Virus genome (UHGV): UHGV-0084588
DNA from: a virus
Reading direction: 5' to 3' (one strand)
Length of the DNA: 64,000 nt
Below, in pieces: positions 35,387-43,298 of the stretch. Under the pieces are notes generated by a model. The model saw nothing but the letters and a program-made list of their open reading frames with translations. It had not been told where the DNA came from and did no database searches. The position numbers and the translations under genes are program-made. Position 1 is the stretch's first letter, and each line of letters opens with the position of its first letter.

Positions 35387-35431
35387 CCTACCGCCCGATT
35401 CTATGGGCGGTAGGTGTTTTTATTTTTTTTT
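35387..35431 (+). terminator. rho-independent terminator before the fibre module
   Basis: CCTACCGCCC-gattctat-GGGCGGTAGG followed by tgtttttattttttttt. Confidence 0.65.
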
Positions 35432-35447
35432 GATCTGGGAGGTTTTA

Positions 35448-36008
35448 GTGACTGCTTACGTACCTGATTTAAGTTTGTCCTCAGCCGAACTAGTGGTCGC
35501 TTTAATCAACCACGATAACGGTTCACGGTTGTCTCTAAGCGAAATCCGTATTAGCAACACTACGGCAAACCCATCCCCGACCACTTCGCGTCGTAACACA
35601 CTGACAGAGATTACAAAAATCAGGAAACCTGATGGTGCTTCTGTAGTTGTTTATTACGACCGTTTGGATGCGGACGAAGTGTTAGCGTCTGAACCTATTT
35701 TGATTTCGTTAGATGGTACTGAAGACAACCTTCGTGACATTTTAGGTGTTGTAAATGAATTCTGCGGAACGAACTTACAACCCGAGGATTTACGTGCTTC
35801 AGATATCACCTTAGGTAAAGAACCCATTGCTGTCAACGTTGCTGACGATTCCCCTGCGTGGATGAATGCGTTTATGGTGACGTTATTTGATACAACCGAA
35901 CGGGCATTGGCAAACGAAGAAGATGCAATCTTCTGTATTGATGATGAGGCCGTTCTTACCTTTGAGGTTCCAGATGACGGTACGGCTGAAGAAAATCCGG
36001 CTATATGA
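35448..36008 (+). CDS. fibre-module accessory protein, member of a six-copy paralogous family
   Basis: GTG at 35448 preceded by gggagg; the track start at 35403 falls inside the terminator hairpin. Paralog of 42163-42678. Confidence 0.5.
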   Translation: MTAYVPDLSLSSAELVVALINHDNGSRLSLSEIRISNTTANPSPTTSRRNTLTEITKIRKPDGASVVVYYDRLDADEVLASEPILISLDGTEDNLRDILGVVNEFCGTNLQPEDLRASDITLGKEPIAVNVADDSPAWMNAFMVTLFDTTERALANEEDAIFCIDDEAVLTFEVPDDGTAEENPAI

Positions 36009-36212
36009 GCTTGACGCTTTTACTGGTAATGGAGGCCAAAGTAAACTTTTATCAAGACTTAGTAAACCCAGATCATGAGAACGCGGAATTGGACATCACT
36101 TTCACGTTAGAAGTTGATGGATTAAAACCAGTATAATAATCCGCTTATAAAAATGTTGGGGAGGTGCTTTACCTCCCCAGATCTTTTAGCTCCAGATAGA
36201 GAATTAAATATC

Positions 36213-39200
36213 ATGGCTAAAGCGGTAAAGAAAATACGTTTACACGATTTGCGTCCATACACCGGGGATATCGGTGAAGGCGTTTTACTTTTTTCGAAAG
36301 ACGAAAAAGATTATAAGTTACCCGTCCGCGAAATCGTTGCGGATATTGACACCGTCAGAAACGCGGTTGCTGATGCACAAACAGCTGCAGCCAAATCGCA
36401 GCAGTCTGCAACAGAAGCTACGCAAGCAAAAAATTTAGCGGAAACCGCGAAGCAACAAACTGACACGTTAGCTTCCACAGTCAGTGAGCAAGCGGGAACC
36501 GTTGCCACTAAAACTGCTGAAGTTAACAAAAAACACGCTGAAGTTTTAGCAGCGAAAACTGCCGTAGATACTGTTTCACAATCAGTAAATGAGAAGGCTC
36601 AAGCTGTCGCCACATCCGAACAATCTGTGACGGCTACGGCGGCTGATGTAACTAAGAAAGCAGAAACGGTTACGCAACAGGCCGGACAAGTTCAACAGAC
36701 GGCTACCAGCGTTGAAAATACCGCAGCTTCAGTCGAGGCCAGTAAAGGTGCAGTGGAGAAAATCGCTGCACAGGTCGCGAAAGATAAAGAAAGCTCAGAA
36801 GGGGCAGCTACGCGTTCGGAGTCAGCTGCCCTACGTGCGGAGAAAATCGCTGCCCAAGGATTAGTTGACGCTACTACAACCGGTAAAGGTATTGTTAAAC
36901 TTAACGATACCCTGACAAGCGATTCCGTGACTGAGGCTGCTACACCGTCCACGGTTAAACAGCTGAACGACGATTTACAGTTAAAAGCCAATAAACATTC
37001 GCCGAATTTTACGGGTAACCCGACATCCCCAAAACCGCCGAAGGACTCGAATGACACGAGTATCTCCACAACGTCCTGGGTGCGTGACGCGATTGCGGAA
37101 TTGGTTGGTTCTTCACCCGAGACGCTAAATACCTTAGCGGAATTAGCTGAGGCGTTAGGTAATGACCCTAACTTCGCAACAACGATCACTGAGGAACTTG
37201 CGCAGAAACAACCTCTCAGCCCGTTACTCACCGCTATTGCCGCAGTCACCACAGCGGCAAACAAACTCATGTATTTCACCGGCAGTAATAAAGTCGGATT
37301 AACAGATTTTACAGAAACGGCCAGATCCTTGTTAGCGAAAGGGTCAACTGCGGATATCATTAACTTCCTGGGTTTGAAACCCACCGTTGATAAAGCAAAC
37401 GGCGCATTACAGAAAAACTCTAACGGTGCTGATATCCCAAATAAAGAAACTTTTGCTCGCAACATCGGCCTATCTCCTGATACCTATCTGCGTTTCCGTG
37501 GCGAAATGCCTGTAGATGCTGATATTAACACATTTGCTCCAGATGCTAATTACACAGGAACATGGTCCAAGTCGACATCAACCAATGCGTCGATGGCAAA
37601 ACACTTCCCAGAAGACGGTGCAGTCGGTTATCTGGAAGTGTATAAAGCGGGCAACTACAGTGGAGCGCAACGTTTTACCTGCCGTAATGGTAACGTGTAC
37701 AACCGTATGTTGTCAGGTGCGTGGAACGGAACTAATGGCCCGTGGTCACCGTGGAGAATGGTAACTACCGGTGTACGTCCGTTATCTACATCGATCGATC
37801 TGAACTCCTTAGGCGGCGCTGAGCACATGGGTAACTGGCGTAACTCGTCCAGTTCGTTAGCGGTGTTCGACAGACATTATCCTGAAGAGGGCGGTAATGC
37901 GCAAGGCGTATTAGAAGTCATGGAAGGCGGTCTTTATGGACGGTTGCAACGATACACCACACGACATGGTACGATGTATGTCCGTGGTTTGACTGCGACT
38001 TGGGATTCTTCTAATCCGCAGTGGGAAGATTGGATTCAGGTTGGGTATCAGGTAGACGGTGCCTACTATAAGGGTAGCTTTAACGACTTAACTAAACCGG
38101 GCCGCTTTAGTGTTACCGGTGAGGCTACAGACAGTCCGTTAACAGACTCTGCTGGCGCAACCTTGCTAGGTGTTTGCGAAGTTACCTTACGCTTAGACGG
38201 TTCAGGCGTTGAACAAAATTATACCACATACGGTACAGGCGCAACTTCGAAAGGTCGCAAGTTCCAACGAATTCGTACAGGAAACGCCTGGAGCGAATGG
38301 CGAGAGATTTTCACATCCTATTCACTCCCGTTGACTTTAGGGATCGGTGGGGTTGCTGCTAAGGTCGATCCGTTAGACTGGCAAACATTCGACTTCGTTC
38401 CTGGCCAGATGATAAGTACACCGTTGAATACCATGAAAAATATTCCTGCGGGAATGGATTGGGGTGTTATCGACGGTAACTTGGTCACTATTCTTGTAGG
38501 GGCGTCGGAGGACACCGGTACTGGCCGGAGTATGTTGGTCTGGCGTGGTACAGTGTCTACTGCTAACTATCGCTTCTTTGCTGTTCGCGTCGCTGGTGAA
38601 AAGGGTAAACGTACTATTACTAGCCGCCAGATGCCCGTATTGAATGCAGCGCATACGTGGGCAGAAAAACAGACCTTTGCAAAAGGGTTATCGGGCGAAT
38701 TGACAGGTAATGCGTCAACGGCAACAAAACTGAAAACAGCCCGTTTAATCGGCGGTGTAAGTTTCGACGGTAGCGGCGACATTAGCCTCCCTGGTGTGAA
38801 CCAACAGGGTAATCAAAACACCTCTGGGAACGCGGGAACCGCAACCAAATTACAAACGGCTCGAAACATCAACGGTGTGAAATTTGATGGGTCTAGAGAC
38901 ATCAATATCAACACGTTGGTAGGACGTGGACGTGTTACTGCACTGTCTGGTTCAAACAAAGGTACACCCGGTATTCAGATGTACGAAGTTTACAATAACG
39001 GTTATCCAACCGCTTATGGTAACTTACTGCATTTGGGTGGCGCTACTGCGCTAGGTGAAGGCGAGCTGTTAATCGGATGGCCGGGGACGAGCGGTGCGCA
39101 CGCGCCTGTTTATATTCGTAGTCGACGTGATACGGCTGATGCACCGTGGTCAGATTGGGCACAAGTTTACACTGCCCGTGACAGCATTCCTGGCGTAAAT

Positions 39201-40655
39201 GCCACCGGTAATCAAGATACTACCGGCAACGCCGCTACCGCGACGAAACTGAAAACCGCTCGCAGGATCGGAGGCGTTACCTTTGACGGTACAGGTGATA
39301 TCAATTTACCGGGCGTTAACCAGCAAGGCAACCAGAATACGACAGGTAATGCAGCGACCGCTACTAAGTTACAAACCGCACGTAAGATCGGCGGTGTGCT
39401 TTTCGATGGGACAAAAGACGTTAATCTTCCTGGCGTAAACCAAACCGGTAACCAATCGACTACGGGGAATGCGGCGACAGCGACTAAGCTCCAGACTGCG
39501 CGAAATATAGGTGGTGTAGCTTTTGATGGTACTAAAGACATCAGTTTACCTGGAGTAAACCAAACAGGTAATCAGGCGACTACCGGAAACGCAGCCACGG
39601 CAACAAAGTTGCAAACCGCAAGAACCATTAACGGTATCGCATTTGACGGCACTAGAAATATATCGTTAGGACCTGCCGATATAGGTTGTCCGGCATCGCC
39701 TAGTGGTTGGTTAGAAACTGGCAAAGATGGCGGCGCAATAACTACAGCACAGCTAGTGACGTTATTGAAAAATAACGGCGCATTTACCACAAGATCGTGG
39801 GTTGCTCGCTGTGCATGGGCTTATGCCGCTAGTGCGTCCATACCACACAGCGAGACGGGTTGTGGTGTTATTCCGTTAGCTGGGGCCGTTATAGAAGTGA
39901 TTAGTAACGGTAATAGCACAAACAACTACACGATCCGTATAACGACTGCCACAACGGCGAGCGTCGGTGGCGCACTCACTAATGCGGAGTTTATCTACGT
40001 ATTTAACGGCGATACATACTCACCAGGCTGGCGTCGTGCTTACAATACGAGAAACAAGCCAACTGCTGCAGAAGTGGGTGCACTACCTTCGGGGGGCGGT
40101 ACTATAGGCGGCGATTTAACCGTTAACGGTAAATTGGCCACTAAATACCCTGATTTTCGAATCGCTTACGGTACCTACGGTTTTATTTTACGTAACGACG
40201 GTGCCAATACCTATTTCTTAGTAACCGACGCCGGACAAGCCGCAACGGGTTCCTGGAACGGATTACGCCCGTTGTCTTTTAATAATTCTAACGGCCAAGT
40301 AAACTTTGGACATAACGTTACTGGCAACGGTAACGGTTCGTTTAACGACGTACAGATTCGTTCTGACCGTCGTAACAAACGTAATCTGGTGAAGCTGGAT
40401 AAAGCTTTGGATCGGTTAGAGTTACTAACCGGTTATTTGTACGAAATTCAGCATCCGGATGACGGCTGGCAGACTTCTGTAGGTCTAATTGCTCAGGACG
40501 CATTAGAAGCGTTACCTGAACTTGTGTCTGAGGATGATGATGCCATTTCAGGCGAAAAACGTTTACGTCTAAACTACAATGGCGTTATTGCGCTGTTAGT
40601 AGAGGGTATGAAAGCGTTGCGTCAAGAGGTTAACGAAATTAAAGGAAGATCCTAA
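36213..40655 (+). CDS. tail fibre protein with Ala-rich coiled coil, 40-aa tandem repeats and C-terminal intramolecular chaperone (S74-like) domain
   Basis: 1480-aa ORF; repeats GNAATATKLQTAR.IGGV.FDGT.DI.LPGVNQ.GNQ.TT; C-terminal SDRRNKRN...GLIAQD...YNGVIALLVEGMKALRQE resembles the self-cleaving chaperone domain of tail fibres and tailspikes. Start moved from 36153 to 36213 by paralogy with 42678. Confidence 0.85.
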   Translation: MAKAVKKIRLHDLRPYTGDIGEGVLLFSKDEKDYKLPVREIVADIDTVRNAVADAQTAAAKSQQSATEATQAKNLAETAKQQTDTLASTVSEQAGTVATKTAEVNKKHAEVLAAKTAVDTVSQSVNEKAQAVATSEQSVTATAADVTKKAETVTQQAGQVQQTATSVENTAASVEASKGAVEKIAAQVAKDKESSEGAATRSESAALRAEKIAAQGLVDATTTGKGIVKLNDTLTSDSVTEAATPSTVKQLNDDLQLKANKHSPNFTGNPTSPKPPKDSNDTSISTTSWVRDAIAELVGSSPETLNTLAELAEALGNDPNFATTITEELAQKQPLSPLLTAIAAVTTAANKLMYFTGSNKVGLTDFTETARSLLAKGSTADIINFLGLKPTVDKANGALQKNSNGADIPNKETFARNIGLSPDTYLRFRGEMPVDADINTFAPDANYTGTWSKSTSTNASMAKHFPEDGAVGYLEVYKAGNYSGAQRFTCRNGNVYNRMLSGAWNGTNGPWSPWRMVTTGVRPLSTSIDLNSLGGAEHMGNWRNSSSSLAVFDRHYPEEGGNAQGVLEVMEGGLYGRLQRYTTRHGTMYVRGLTATWDSSNPQWEDWIQVGYQVDGAYYKGSFNDLTKPGRFSVTGEATDSPLTDSAGATLLGVCEVTLRLDGSGVEQNYTTYGTGATSKGRKFQRIRTGNAWSEWREIFTSYSLPLTLGIGGVAAKVDPLDWQTFDFVPGQMISTPLNTMKNIPAGMDWGVIDGNLVTILVGASEDTGTGRSMLVWRGTVSTANYRFFAVRVAGEKGKRTITSRQMPVLNAAHTWAEKQTFAKGLSGELTGNASTATKLKTARLIGGVSFDGSGDISLPGVNQQGNQNTSGNAGTATKLQTARNINGVKFDGSRDININTLVGRGRVTALSGSNKGTPGIQMYEVYNNGYPTAYGNLLHLGGATALGEGELLIGWPGTSGAHAPVYIRSRRDTADAPWSDWAQVYTARDSIPGVNATGNQDTTGNAATATKLKTARRIGGVTFDGTGDINLPGVNQQGNQNTTGNAATATKLQTARKIGGVLFDGTKDVNLPGVNQTGNQSTTGNAATATKLQTARNIGGVAFDGTKDISLPGVNQTGNQATTGNAATATKLQTARTINGIAFDGTRNISLGPADIGCPASPSGWLETGKDGGAITTAQLVTLLKNNGAFTTRSWVARCAWAYAASASIPHSETGCGVIPLAGAVIEVISNGNSTNNYTIRITTATTASVGGALTNAEFIYVFNGDTYSPGWRRAYNTRNKPTAAEVGALPSGGGTIGGDLTVNGKLATKYPDFRIAYGTYGFILRNDGANTYFLVTDAGQAATGSWNGLRPLSFNNSNGQVNFGHNVTGNGNGSFNDVQIRSDRRNKRNLVKLDKALDRLELLTGYLYEIQHPDDGWQTSVGLIAQDALEALPELVSEDDDAISGEKRLRLNYNGVIALLVEGMKALRQEVNEIKGRS
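38706..38912 (+). repeat. two tandem copies of a 120-bp (40-aa) fibre repeat inside the tail fibre gene
   Basis: Encodes GNASTATKLKTARLIGGVSFDGSGDISLPGVNQQGNQNTS followed by a diverged copy. Confidence 0.7.
39225..39680 (+). repeat. four tandem copies of the 120-bp (40-aa) fibre repeat inside the tail fibre gene
   Basis: Copies begin at 39225, 39345, 39465 and 39585; each encodes GNAATATKLQTAR.IGGV.FDGT.DI.LPGVNQ.GNQ.TT with synonymous codon drift. Confidence 0.8.
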
Positions 40656-41437
40656 TGGCAGTTGTCGGCGTAGGTGGTTGGATTGGTTCTTCAGCAAAAG
40701 CTGAAGCTGGTAACGAATGGATGTCTGGCGCGATGCGCACACTTGGTGTGCCGGTTCCAGGCTGGATGTCGCAATTGGCGGGAAAATCAAAAGAGGTCCA
40801 TTATTCTATTGGTGCTAACCATAGCTATAATAAGGATACTCTTATTAACTATTTACGTTCTTTAGGCTCTACTGCTGTCGTTGTGACTATTACGGGGGAT
40901 TTAGTGTCCCATAGTAGCACGGTTCCTTGTTTAGAATTCCCTAGCAATCTTCCAAATTCGTATATTACCCTCATCATCAATCCTGGGGTTACAGTATACG
41001 GCAGAGGAGGCAACGGCGGTTCTAACTCACCAGGCGGTGCAGGTGGAACCGCAATACAGAACGGAATAGGAAACAGACTGCGTATAACCAACCGTGGCGC
41101 TATTGCCGGAGGCGGTGGCGGCGGTGGCGGCGGTAACAGGGGTAGACTAACATTTGGTGGTGGCGGTGGTCGCCCATTCGGTGCTGGTGGGTCTTCCTCT
41201 CATATGAGTTCCGGTGCGGCTGCTGGTACTATTTCCGCTCCTGGTAGAGGATCTGTTGGTGAGGGGTCTCTTAGTGCATATACAGGCGGTTCGGGTGGTA
41301 ATGTCGGTGCTGCTGGAGGAAGATGTAATACTCATGGTAACGGTACAGAATATAACGGCGGAGCAGCTGGTAAAGCTGTTACTGGTAATGCGCCAAGATG
41401 GGACGCAGTAGGTGCAATATATGGTTCACGTGTTTAA
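40655..41437 (+). CDS. glycine-rich protein (260 aa), likely fibre-associated
   Basis: Start overlaps the fibre gene stop (TAATG); contains GGGGGGGGGNRGRLTFGGGGGRPFGAGGSS. Confidence 0.6.
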   Translation: MAVVGVGGWIGSSAKAEAGNEWMSGAMRTLGVPVPGWMSQLAGKSKEVHYSIGANHSYNKDTLINYLRSLGSTAVVVTITGDLVSHSSTVPCLEFPSNLPNSYITLIINPGVTVYGRGGNGGSNSPGGAGGTAIQNGIGNRLRITNRGAIAGGGGGGGGGNRGRLTFGGGGGRPFGAGGSSSHMSSGAAAGTISAPGRGSVGEGSLSAYTGGSGGNVGAAGGRCNTHGNGTEYNGGAAGKAVTGNAPRWDAVGAIYGSRV

Positions 41438-41497
41438 TTTGAAAAAGTATGGGGGTACTCACTCCCCTCCTCGCATCTTTCAAAAGGTGGGGGTAAA

Positions 41498-42010
41498 ATG
41501 GCGGTAGCATCAGGATGGGTCGGATCTTCAGCTAAGAATGAAACTGGCGAACAATGGATGAGCGCTGCGGGTAGTAAATTAGGATTGGGTAGACCATTTA
41601 TGATGAGTCAAATGGTGGGCCGATCTACGGGTTGTAAAATTGCGACCGCTTACTACAAAGGGAATCCTCCTGATAAAGTTGAAAACTGGGGGGCCGTAGG
41701 TTCAGATTGGCCATTGGCTGAAAAGAACAAAGGCACAATTACTGGTGCTTCGAGCTGTGGTTTAGGTCGTTTAGTGGGGATCGTACTTACGCAAGCTCAC
41801 TACATTTCTGGTGTTCCACCCACTGCGGCTTTATACATCGCAGGAGGAAGGGCAAGTAATATTACAGTAACAGTTGGTGGGGTCTCACAAGTTTTCACCT
41901 ATAATAGTGTTATTAACGGTTTTCACTATTACTGGCAAGGAACACCTAGTTCGGCCTTTATAGCAGCAATGAAGAGAACGGGTGTTACACAAGATTTGAA
42001 AATTAGTTAA
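41498..42010 (+). CDS. paralog of the glycine-rich protein (N-terminal domain only, 170 aa)
   Basis: N-terminus MAVASGWVGSSAKNETGEQWMSAA aligns with MAVVGVGGWIGSSAKAEAGNEWMSGA of 40655-41437. Confidence 0.55.
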   Translation: MAVASGWVGSSAKNETGEQWMSAAGSKLGLGRPFMMSQMVGRSTGCKIATAYYKGNPPDKVENWGAVGSDWPLAEKNKGTITGASSCGLGRLVGIVLTQAHYISGVPPTAALYIAGGRASNITVTVGGVSQVFTYNSVINGFHYYWQGTPSSAFIAAMKRTGVTQDLKIS

Positions 42011-42162: not shown

Positions 42163-42678
42163 ATGGGGCAATTCGTGCCGGATTTGTCGTTAACTTCACT
42201 TAACATGGTTATTTCACTGGTTAACCATGACCTCCAGCTCGACTTGCAAGAGAACGAGGTTGAAGTCAGCGACGTAAAGACCAGTAACGAAATGGATCGT
42301 GACACCACTGCTGTTGTAAAGATAAAACGTCCGGACAACAGAACGTTGCAGATATATTACAACCGTTTAACCGCAGAGCGGTGGTTAAACCAGCAACCTA
42401 TCCTAGTAAAGGTTTCCGGTAATGGCTTTACCGCACACGATCTAATCGACGGAATTAACGCGGCTTGTGGTTGTAATTTACAACCCGACGATCTTACCGA
42501 CGAATCATTTACCGTAGGGAAAGACGCTGTAACGTTACAGGTTTCACCCAACTCGTTAGGTTATAAAGGCCAATTCTCCGTTCTGGTTTTCGGTAACGAT
42601 GAAGAAGCTGCTGTAGTAAAAGACAACGATTTAATCGTTACCGCAGATAACCGTGTCTTAACATTCGGAGGCCGCTAA
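42163..42678 (+). CDS. fibre-module accessory protein, paralog of 35448-36008
   Basis: Shares PDLSL..., IYYNRLTA and CGCNLQPDDL motifs with 35448-36008; SD gggag upstream. Confidence 0.55.
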   Translation: MGQFVPDLSLTSLNMVISLVNHDLQLDLQENEVEVSDVKTSNEMDRDTTAVVKIKRPDNRTLQIYYNRLTAERWLNQQPILVKVSGNGFTAHDLIDGINAACGCNLQPDDLTDESFTVGKDAVTLQVSPNSLGYKGQFSVLVFGNDEEAAVVKDNDLIVTADNRVLTFGGR

Positions 42679-43298
42679 TGGCTGAACTGGTAGGAAAGGT
42701 GCGCATTCATGAACTGGAGACACTTTCAGAAGACATCACGGGTGTAGTAGTCTTAGCGTCTAAGGAACAAACTGAATACCAACTCCCGATTGAGAAATTA
42801 GGGGGTACCGAGGTTACAGTGAGTCCGTCAGCGAATAACATCCTTAAGTCTAACAACGATGGGTTGTTTGTTGACGGCACTCATCCGATTATACCAAAAA
42901 TGGATGCAAAAACCTTATCGGGAAATATGGTGGTAGAAAAAACGTTGACAGGTGGTGCGGTAATCTGCAAAACAACAGTTGACGTTAATAATAGACTGGG
43001 GGTTTCGCAATTATCTGGAGTGTCAATTTATAGCCAGTGTCTGTTGGAAAATAAATTGGTTTATCTGGGAGAAGACGGCAGTATTATTGATGCGTACTTC
43101 TACATTAGTAATACAAAGACCACAGCCAGTACAATAACCCACACCATTCGTGTTGTTTTAGCGAAGATACCCTCTAAAGTTATCGATATCACCGATTTGT
43201 CTGAAACCGAAGTACAATACGAGAATAGTAATTTACCTGTTAAGATCGTTATTAAACATCTTGCAGGGACAACACTTTCCCAGAACGGAATGAAATAA
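42678..43298 (+). CDS. putative second receptor-binding or fibre protein sharing the N-terminal domain of the 1480-aa fibre (206 aa)
   Basis: N-terminus MAELVGKVRIHELETLSEDITGVVVLASKEQTEYQLPIEKL aligns with MAKAVKKIRLHDLRPYTGDIGEGVLLFSKDEKDYKLPVREI of 36213; terminator downstream. Confidence 0.5.
   Translation: MAELVGKVRIHELETLSEDITGVVVLASKEQTEYQLPIEKLGGTEVTVSPSANNILKSNNDGLFVDGTHPIIPKMDAKTLSGNMVVEKTLTGGAVICKTTVDVNNRLGVSQLSGVSIYSQCLLENKLVYLGEDGSIIDAYFYISNTKTTASTITHTIRVVLAKIPSKVIDITDLSETEVQYENSNLPVKIVIKHLAGTTLSQNGMK

Follow-up and report, generated by a model that had tools for sequence, protein, structure and literature searches.

The fiber protein gp37 of phage S16 autocleaves at DLNVS^SDRRIKK, which frees a 113-residue chaperone and exposes a docking surface for gp38; two tryptophan residues of gp38 are the prongs that insert into the gp37 tip (PMC7917993). 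The fPS phages carry DVYIR^SDGRLK (PMC7917993). Another long fiber protein, gp90 of phage Goslar, has been found in virions by mass spectrometry (preprint 10.64898/2026.04.21.720040). Here we describe a tail-fiber gene in a 64,000-nucleotide (nt) stretch of the virus genome UHGV-0084588, referred to below as the window. A first-pass annotation of the same DNA had drawn attention to positions 38706-40655, the final 650 codons of a single plus-strand open reading frame (ORF), as part of a tail fiber with six tandem repeats of 40 amino acids (aa) and a self-cleaving, chaperone-like domain at its C terminus.

We consider it highly probable that this region encodes the distal 650 residues of a mosaic, trimeric fiber of ~1480 aa, in which a shaft of the P1 gpS/Goslar type leads to a tip that is processed by S74 autocleavage and capped by an adhesin, and that the carrier is a chimallivirus-like jumbo phage of Enterobacteriaceae. 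The tail-fiber assignment itself holds: the best PHROG tail-fiber families match the protein with expectation values (E) down to 1e-286. Residues are numbered from the ATG at 36153; for the shorter protein discussed below, 20 is to be subtracted. Homologue statistics refer to the best 120 of >7700 homologues.

The C-terminal chaperone and the adhesins downstream

The distal end of the fiber and the two genes that follow it contain these features:

39696..40127, plus strand: domain related to the phage Mu tail-fiber S/S' fusion, aa 1182-1325 (PDB 8ju3_A)
39978..40277, plus strand: T4 gp34-type trimerization domain (PF21446, Gp34_trimer), aa 1276-1375 (Pfam)
40347..40361, plus strand: DVQIR, aa 1399-1403, predicted to be the C-terminal strand of the mature fiber and presumed to dock gp38
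40362..40655, plus strand: Peptidase_S74 chaperone domain, aa 1404-1500 (97 aa), with the stop codon (Pfam, PDB 6f45_A)
40655..41437, plus strand: gp38-type adhesin of 260 aa with an N-terminal attachment domain and a polyglycine receptor-binding domain (Pfam, PDB)
41498..42010, plus strand: second, alternative adhesin of 170 aa, Gp38_N followed by an unrelated C-terminal domain (Gp38_N 8e-21, phrog_1121)

The intramolecular chaperone proposed by the first-pass annotation was recovered in the Pfam scan as Peptidase_S74 (PF13884; E 5.1e-10, 39.9 bits against a cut-off of 22), with aa 1404-1458 covering profile positions 1-57 of 58. The domain lies at the extreme C terminus, from S1404 to S1500 (nt 40362-40652), and runs up to the stop codon. 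Over its last 140 aa the protein aligns with S16 gp37 (PDB 6f45_A) at 1e-13, and this alignment places ...DVQIR-SDRRNKRNL of the window opposite ...DLNVS-SDRRIKKDI of S16. A Ser-Lys dyad is present (S1404-D-R-R-N-K1409, with the lysine five residues on), and Ser1404, Arg1407, and Lys1409 are invariant in 15/15 aligned S74-bearing homologues. Moreover, the sequence DV[YQ]IR|SDxRxK occurs in 13/13 S74-ending proteins among the best 120, as either DVYIR|SDRRSK or DVQIR|SDRRNK. The S74 interpretation is thus well supported by these alignments. The predicted scissile bond is Arg1403|Ser1404, with Ser1404 as the putative nucleophile and Lys1409 as the putative base, and we infer that cleavage at this position would release 97 aa.

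Upstream of the chaperone, PDB 8ju3_A matches the whole protein with an E value of 2.3e-38 and aa 1182-1325 alone with 8e-28. The Gp34_trimer domain is matched in Pfam at 1.3e-19 (71.2 bits against a cut-off of 27), and PDB entries 4uxe, 5nxf, and 5yvq match aa 1313-1394 (4uxe and 5nxf at 1e-13); Mu S structures also match this domain.

The first-pass annotation passed over the two gp38-type adhesin genes, which alter the role of the processed tip. The ATG of the 260-aa adhesin overlaps the fiber stop codon, and its product matches Pfam GP38 (PF05268, 2.2e-70), Gp38_N (PF21721, 5.2e-14), and S16 gp38 in the PDB (6f45_D, 2.7e-50). The 170-aa adhesin belongs with phrog_1121, "tail fiber adhesin" (3e-54), and its N terminus matches 6f45_D. 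Both N termini align with that of S16 gp38 around two tryptophans (GGW-IGSS...NEW-MS and SGW-VGSS...EQW-MS versus GPW-VGSS...QNW-AS in S16). An S74 fiber is paired with Gp38_N in every relative examined (L004, L005, L006, and L008) and also in the unrelated E. coli phage-plasmids L007 (260-aa GP38 type) and L009 (p09EL50), in the latter of which the 170-aa type is the sole adhesin after the S74 fiber. The occurrence of gp38-family adhesins directly downstream of an S74-ending fiber points to a T2/S16-type fiber, which by analogy would most likely be capped by a separate adhesin after chaperone release. On the same analogy, receptor recognition most likely resides in the two adhesins rather than in the fiber protein.

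We propose that assembly would proceed as in endosialidase and S16 gp37, with three S74 domains nucleating the folding of the trimer. Ser1404, activated by Lys1409, would then cut the Arg1403-Ser1404 bond, the 97-aa chaperone would depart, and the mature fiber would end in ...FNDVQIR. This flat tip would dock the Trp-bearing Gp38_N domain of either downstream adhesin. As a more tentative extension, which we put forward as somewhat short of an even chance, a nucleus-forming jumbo phage may have acquired a T2/S16-type tip with two interchangeable adhesins, alike in docking domain and unrelated in receptor-binding domain, that could give two specificities per burst, while shaft units gained or lost singly tune the reach of the fiber. 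If true, this would be the first T2/S16-type adhesin-capped system described in a jumbo phage, since 40 of the 721 phage records that match gp38 were sampled evenly and none of these 40 exceeded 178 kb. Deposited phage genomes appear to include no jumbo phage with a gp38 tip, although "plasmid" and metagenome records do contain one.

The adhesin genes vary among relatives. The first adhesin slot holds the 260-aa GP38 type in the window, L005, and L008, a protein of 175 aa in L006, and one of 181 aa in L004. The homology between the window and L004 (93%) ends at 40637, 18 nt before the fiber stop, and resumes at ~42178, which places the boundary of the adhesin cassette at the very end of the S74 domain. 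The 170-aa adhesin gene (41479-42010) shares 91-92% DNA identity with ~108-kb phage-plasmids of E. coli O104:H4 and Shigella sonnei, e.g., p09EL50, and the remainder of the locus has no comparable match to these phage-plasmids; this pattern suggests recent horizontal transfer of the gene between jumbo phage and phage-plasmids. The tandem adhesins look like a swappable cassette. Neither the tandem arrangement nor the 170-aa family is unprecedented: some T4-like phages (e.g., PEi26 and KLB31) already have annotated gp38 genes in tandem, and in Stx phages the 170-aa family carries the annotation Gp38 adhesin.

The repeated shaft

The repeat-bearing part of the fiber, together with a more proximal element that bears on the identity of the repeat, is laid out as follows:

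36873..36992, plus strand: Phage_fiber_2 (PF03406) unit, aa 241-280 (Pfam E 1.7e-09, 37.6 bits)
38706..38909, plus strand: proximal run, with unit 1 (aa 852-891, full 40 aa) and unit 2 (aa 892-919, core only)
38910..39224, plus strand: non-repeat insert between the runs, aa 920-1024, homologous to P1 gpS aa ~520-623
39225..39668, plus strand: distal run, with units 3-5 (full, aa 1025-1144) and unit 6 (core only, aa 1145-1172)

A motif search over the 1500-aa ORF placed all six of the repeats exactly where they had been described, in a 2 plus 4 layout. The copies start at aa 852, 892, 1025, 1065, 1105, and 1145 (nt 38706, 38826, 39225, 39345, 39465, and 39585), with a spacing inside each run of exactly 40 aa (120 nt), and no further copy was found on either strand of the window. 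Each unit consists of a GNAATATKLQTARxIGGVxFDGxxDIxL core and a PGVNxxGNQxTT linker. The final copy of each run is reduced to the ~28-aa core and ends INGV.FDG..I.L, the IGGV having been replaced by INGV/INGI before the repeat ends. The insert that separates the two runs comprises 105 aa, including a 12-aa lead-in, and ends with a W-S-D-W motif and the lead-in PGVNATGNQDTT; it has no Pfam match and no PDB sequence match, and it may be knob-like.

The full copies are 72-88% identical in protein and 64-75% identical in DNA. In line with the synonymous drift noted by the first-pass annotation, each pair of copies differs by 16-27 synonymous and 5-11 nonsynonymous codon changes. The longest exact nucleotide run shared by any two copies is 11, and owing to this synonymous divergence Tandem Repeats Finder detects no more than 2.3 copies, at 74%. 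The combination of strong purifying selection on the protein with saturated synonymous divergence indicates that the copies are old and structurally constrained. The repeat unit recurs at exact 40-aa spacing in 120/120 of the best homologues, a regularity beyond chance; these homologues carry 4-9 copies and are mostly E. coli fibers on contigs of ~100-110 kb. Among these homologues, 281 of 507 spacings are 40 aa, 106 are 133 aa, and 87 are 256 aa. Spacings quantized at 40, 133, and 256 aa imply that runs of units are broken by two standard inserts.

To which family does the repeat belong? A repeat profile built from 24 diverse units matched P1 gpS at aa 491-523 (1.2e-19) and aa 624-661 (2.5e-24), and the 133 aa between these two copies equal the spacing of units 2 to 3 in the window fiber. 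Goslar gp90 contains 11 copies of the repeat in runs of 1+6+4. By these profile matches, the repeat is a shaft module of the P1 gpS/Goslar gp90 type. The first-pass annotation had instead likened it to the repeats of T4 gp34-like and lambda Stf-like fibers. When the profile was compared with T4 gp34, gp35, gp36, and gp37 and with lambda Stf (orf401 and orf314) and J, the best match reached 2.9 bits across 11 residues. This was the best domain in the lambda orf401/orf314 comparison, and we rejected lambda Stf as the repeat family. T4 gp34 and gp37 were likewise rejected, as hmmsearch with the repeat profile on T4 gp34-gp37 gave scores below 0 bits and hhalign gave probabilities of 0.08% (gp34) and 0.25% (gp37); full-length gp34 in the PDB (9x3r_M) was not matched by the profile at E<=10. 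The resemblance to gp34 is nevertheless real elsewhere in the fiber, in the Gp34_trimer domain at aa 1276-1375 (71 bits).

The Pfam scan that supported the chaperone also bears on the suggestion that the repeats belong to Phage_fiber_2. The sole match to this family in the protein is the unit at aa 241-280, which lies outside 38706-40655, and a separate scan of the repeat block (aa 840-1196, E<=1) found no Phage_fiber_2 or other fiber-repeat family; Phage_fiber_2 was therefore rejected as the identity of the repeat. We also judged spurious a PDB search result in which the four-unit run matched designed "Cake" beta-propellers with a 40-residue period, as each stretch had E>1. Searching the literature for the motif as a text string returned noise only.

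Along the shaft, a W-[SE]-x-W motif closes four globular segments (at aa 531, 624, 713, and 999), which lie at 37500-38300 (aa ~450-720) and 38910-39190 of the window. By sequence, they resemble knob-type domains that recur down the length of the shaft. Neither Pfam nor PDB sequence searches matched any of the four. As PDB searches with the inter-repeat insert and the three upstream W-x-x-W domains gave nothing usable, we do not classify them as pyocin-type knobs.

Copy number, module exchange, and alternative readings

Repeat number differs among relatives. The 2+4 layout of the window is shared by L004 (93% nt identity) and L008 (84%), whereas L005 and L006 have 2+3 units, with three distal units rather than four. 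In a unit-by-unit comparison, L005 retained the orthologue of distal unit 2 (88% nt) and was without unit 3, while L006 retained distal unit 3 (90-92%) and was without unit 2. Because a different unit is absent in each, at least two independent one-unit changes must have occurred. The register switches in L005 and L006 lie near unit borders, and the 120-nt offset is visible in the alignments. We propose that unit number would shift occasionally, through in-register loss or gain near unit borders.

The first-pass annotation regarded repeat number as a likely source of fiber-length variation through recombination. Variation in copy number is borne out by L005 and L006; ready recombination between the copies is not, given that exact runs are <=11 nt. 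Efficient homologous recombination usually needs an exact match of roughly 20-30 nt. With no shared run of more than 11 nt, the units are poor substrates for homologous recombination and such events must be rare. The divergence of the units may even be favored by selection, as a means of stabilizing the array. We accordingly think it unlikely that the tandem repeats are an active recombination substrate in which unequal crossing-over readily alters fiber length. The changes seen among relatives are what such a process would leave, each amounting to exactly one 120-nt unit (at least two events, unit 3 in L005 and unit 2 in L006) with switches near unit borders, and across the family the length of a run varies from 1 to 6 units. 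However, units that are 64-75% identical with a longest exact match of 11 nt fall far below the ~20-30 nt mentioned above, the 2+4 layout has been kept in L004 (93% nt) and L008 (84%), and the synonymous divergence indicates long-term stability, possibly with selection against recombining copies. Somewhat more plausible, although we still hold it to be the lesser possibility, is that the motif serves mainly as a homology "linker" for swapping fiber modules between phages and that length is a side effect. Blocks of tblastn similarity start or stop on the repeats (Cyrano from aa 845, CMS-2020a from 851, 569R9 to 879, Goslar to 1172), and the window and L008 have different domains beyond the last unit. 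An S74 end is found in only 13/120 of the best repeat-bearing homologues, so shaft and tip assort independently. The positions of the block ends suggest a second role for the repeats as junctions for module exchange. Yet the ends of BLASTP blocks are confounded by register shifts between copy numbers, which makes their histogram a weak hint only, and the motif is not especially conserved between units at the DNA level.

Two other alternatives concern function. The repeat units could bind a surface glycan, forming a lectin-like shaft for reversible primary adsorption, and the paper on phage L Dec does speculate that the motif-bearing C-terminal spike of that protein binds carbohydrate (PMC6449081). 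We find this improbable for the window fiber, in which no sequence or structural evidence supports it; the units are also highly conserved among fibers that differ in tip and host, a pattern better explained by a structural role than by one in specificity. Less probable still is that the S74 domain is vestigial or unreleased, that the fiber's own C-terminal domains bind the receptor, and that the gp38-like proteins are assembly chaperones in the style of T4 gp38. Although gp38 of T4 itself carries the annotation assembly factor, the protein downstream of the window fiber matches PF05268 (T2/S16 adhesin, 2e-70) and the solved S16 gp38 (3e-50) and not the unrelated T4-type chaperone. In addition, conservation extends to both the Ser/Lys dyad and the DVxIR strand, and the pairing of S74 with Gp38_N is kept across unrelated phage backbones.

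Several observations weigh against the reading we prefer, that of a P1 gpS/Goslar-type shaft with a cleaved, adhesin-capped tip. The only PDB sequence matches of the repeat are the C-terminal spike of phage L Dec (8.5e-05) and the PhiM1 gp47 fiber (0.0025), both of which carry the motif with a 7-residue insertion. The C-terminal region of Dec has only been modelled speculatively, as a triple beta-helix (PMC6449081), and the PhiM1 paper is silent on the part of gp47 that bears the motif. AlphaFold2 monomer models based on homologue alignments had a predicted local distance difference test score (pLDDT) of 41.7 for aa 840-1196 and 42.6 for aa 1180-1500, too poor in both cases for a fold search. 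Values of about 42 are expected when obligate trimers are modelled as monomers, and the poor model of the C terminus has, over aa 1406-1499, the secondary-structure order H-E-E-H-E-E-H, which is compatible with an S74 fold. Finally, a frameshift splits the fiber gene in two relatives, L004 and L005. The L004 frameshift lies at ~7930, just after repeat unit 2 (window aa 919/920), and that of L005 (2777-5001) around aa 566-629. These frameshifts may be assembly errors, or they may reflect genuine inactivation or a dispensable fiber.

The fiber gene, its genome, and described systems

The fiber gene and the element preceding it are placed as follows:

36156..36180, plus strand: terminator-like hairpin between the upstream DUF7941 gene and the fiber start (11-bp stem, 6 GC pairs, T-rich tail)
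36213..40655, plus strand: tail-fiber gene (ORF list, PHROG tail-fiber families, L004 gene call, N-terminus alignment)

The ORF extends from the ATG at 36153 to 40655 on the plus strand (1500 aa), but the true start is probably the ATG at 36213 (MAKAVKKIRL..., 1480 aa). The gene call in the 93%-identical relative L004 begins at the position equivalent to 36213, and the N terminus from this methionine aligns with the N terminus of ORF 42678. The hairpin in the 60-nt 5' extension is best read as the terminator of the preceding gene and counts against the ATG at 36153, which we rejected as the start on these grounds. An NCBIfam scan of the fiber returned only coiled-coil noise from the Ala/Gln-rich N-terminal rod. 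Two antisense ORFs lie within the gene, one of 257 aa (36692-37465, minus strand) facing the Ala/Thr/Gln-rich rod and one of 109 aa (39212-39541, minus strand) facing the repeats; they are most simply explained as composition artifacts.

Other ORFs of the window match phiKZ-like structural and replication families, and its major capsid protein shares 81% identity with the one from Erwinia phage Asesino, which the titles and abstracts of two papers present as a nucleus-forming Chimalliviridae phage. Judged by sequence, the window genome is that of a chimallivirus-like jumbo phage. A megablast of the fiber gene against deposited phage genomes gave no match. The most similar DNA is an Enterobacter ludwigii "plasmid" (NZ_CP134650.1), circular and 222,441 bp long, that came from a gull cloaca and in which the fiber is annotated "tail fiber domain-containing protein" and is followed by a "receptor-recognizing protein." The closest DNA relatives are thus filed as E. 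ludwigii "plasmids," of 222 kb and 114.5 kb, which suggests a carrier state or mis-filed phage genomes.

DUF7941 paralogues are found at 35403-36008 and 42163-42678, each directly upstream of a gene with the shared fiber N terminus (36213 and 42678). DUF7941 proteins have been proposed to form long head-to-tail filaments on the baseplate periphery (2026 Goslar preprint 10.64898/2026.04.21.720040). The second fiber-like ORF (42678-43298) encodes only 206 aa in the window, as it does in L005 and L006, and L004 holds in this slot a 706-aa protein with a SASA (sialate O-acetylesterase-like) domain; the slot is a second variable receptor-binding slot.

These assignments provide a testable annotation of the host-recognition apparatus of an uncultured Enterobacter/Enterobacteriaceae jumbo phage, whose specificity could be engineered or predicted from two small adhesin genes rather than from a 1480-aa fiber. 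The repeat shaft, S74 tip, and gp38 adhesin behave as independent cassettes across T-even phages, Stx phages, P1-like/Cyrano-like phage-plasmids, and chimalliviruses. Their mobility would be useful to receptor-prediction models, which now treat gp38 as a feature of Straboviridae.

Among described systems, the T2-type gp37/gp38 pair of S16 (PDB 6F45) shares with the window a C-terminal S74 chaperone, an SDRRxK cleavage motif behind a five-residue strand, and a gp38 gene that adjoins the fiber and encodes Gp38_N and polyglycine domains. It differs in its carrier, a member of Straboviridae rather than a chimallivirus-like jumbo phage, and in its fiber, a gp34-35-36-37 assembly where the window has one 1480-aa chain. 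Unlike S16, the window fiber is of P1/Mu/gp34 type upstream of the tip, and the window has a second adhesin gene, whose product carries an unrelated C-terminal domain. The chaperones of endosialidase and T5 pb1 (Peptidase_S74) have the same Ser-x4-Lys dyad at the extreme C terminus of a trimeric fiber and are unrelated to the window protein in sequence outside the ~100-aa domain. Their release finishes a self-contained receptor-binding tip, whereas release in the window fiber would expose an adhesin docking site. With the C-terminal region of T4 gp34 (PDB 4UXE/5NXF) the window shares Gp34_trimer, over ~77 alignable aa at 1e-13, but T4 gp34 is without the 40-aa repeat of the window; on our reading of PMC5537660, the mixed alpha-beta repeats of gp34 would instead be the counterpart of the Phage_fiber_2-type element at aa 241-280.

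P1 gpS (its variable part Sv) and the fibers of P1-like/Cyrano-like phage-plasmids have the same repeat core and the insert that gives a 133-aa spacing, and the P1 "a" (Phage_fiber_2) and "b" elements also occur near the N terminus of the window fiber. P1 S, however, has single copies where the window has runs, terminates in a Mu-like tip dependent on a separate assembly protein (U), and lies in a Cin-invertible segment; no inversion system is found at the fiber locus within the window. Goslar gp90, a "tail fiber repeat protein," is encoded in the same slot of its genome, where a long fiber gene comes after a DUF7941 gene, and its tblastn similarity to the window fiber is confined to aa 268-1172. 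Its end is without S74 and is followed by a Caudo_TAP tail-fiber assembly protein rather than by gp38 adhesins. The same slot thus ends in Caudo_TAP in Goslar and in S74 and gp38 in the window, indicating that the distal module has been swapped between chimalliviruses. The window fiber does not overturn current understanding; it is a recombination of well-known modules, namely a P1-type shaft, a gp34-type trimerization domain, an S74 chaperone, and gp38 adhesins, for which a chimallivirus-like jumbo-phage backbone is new.

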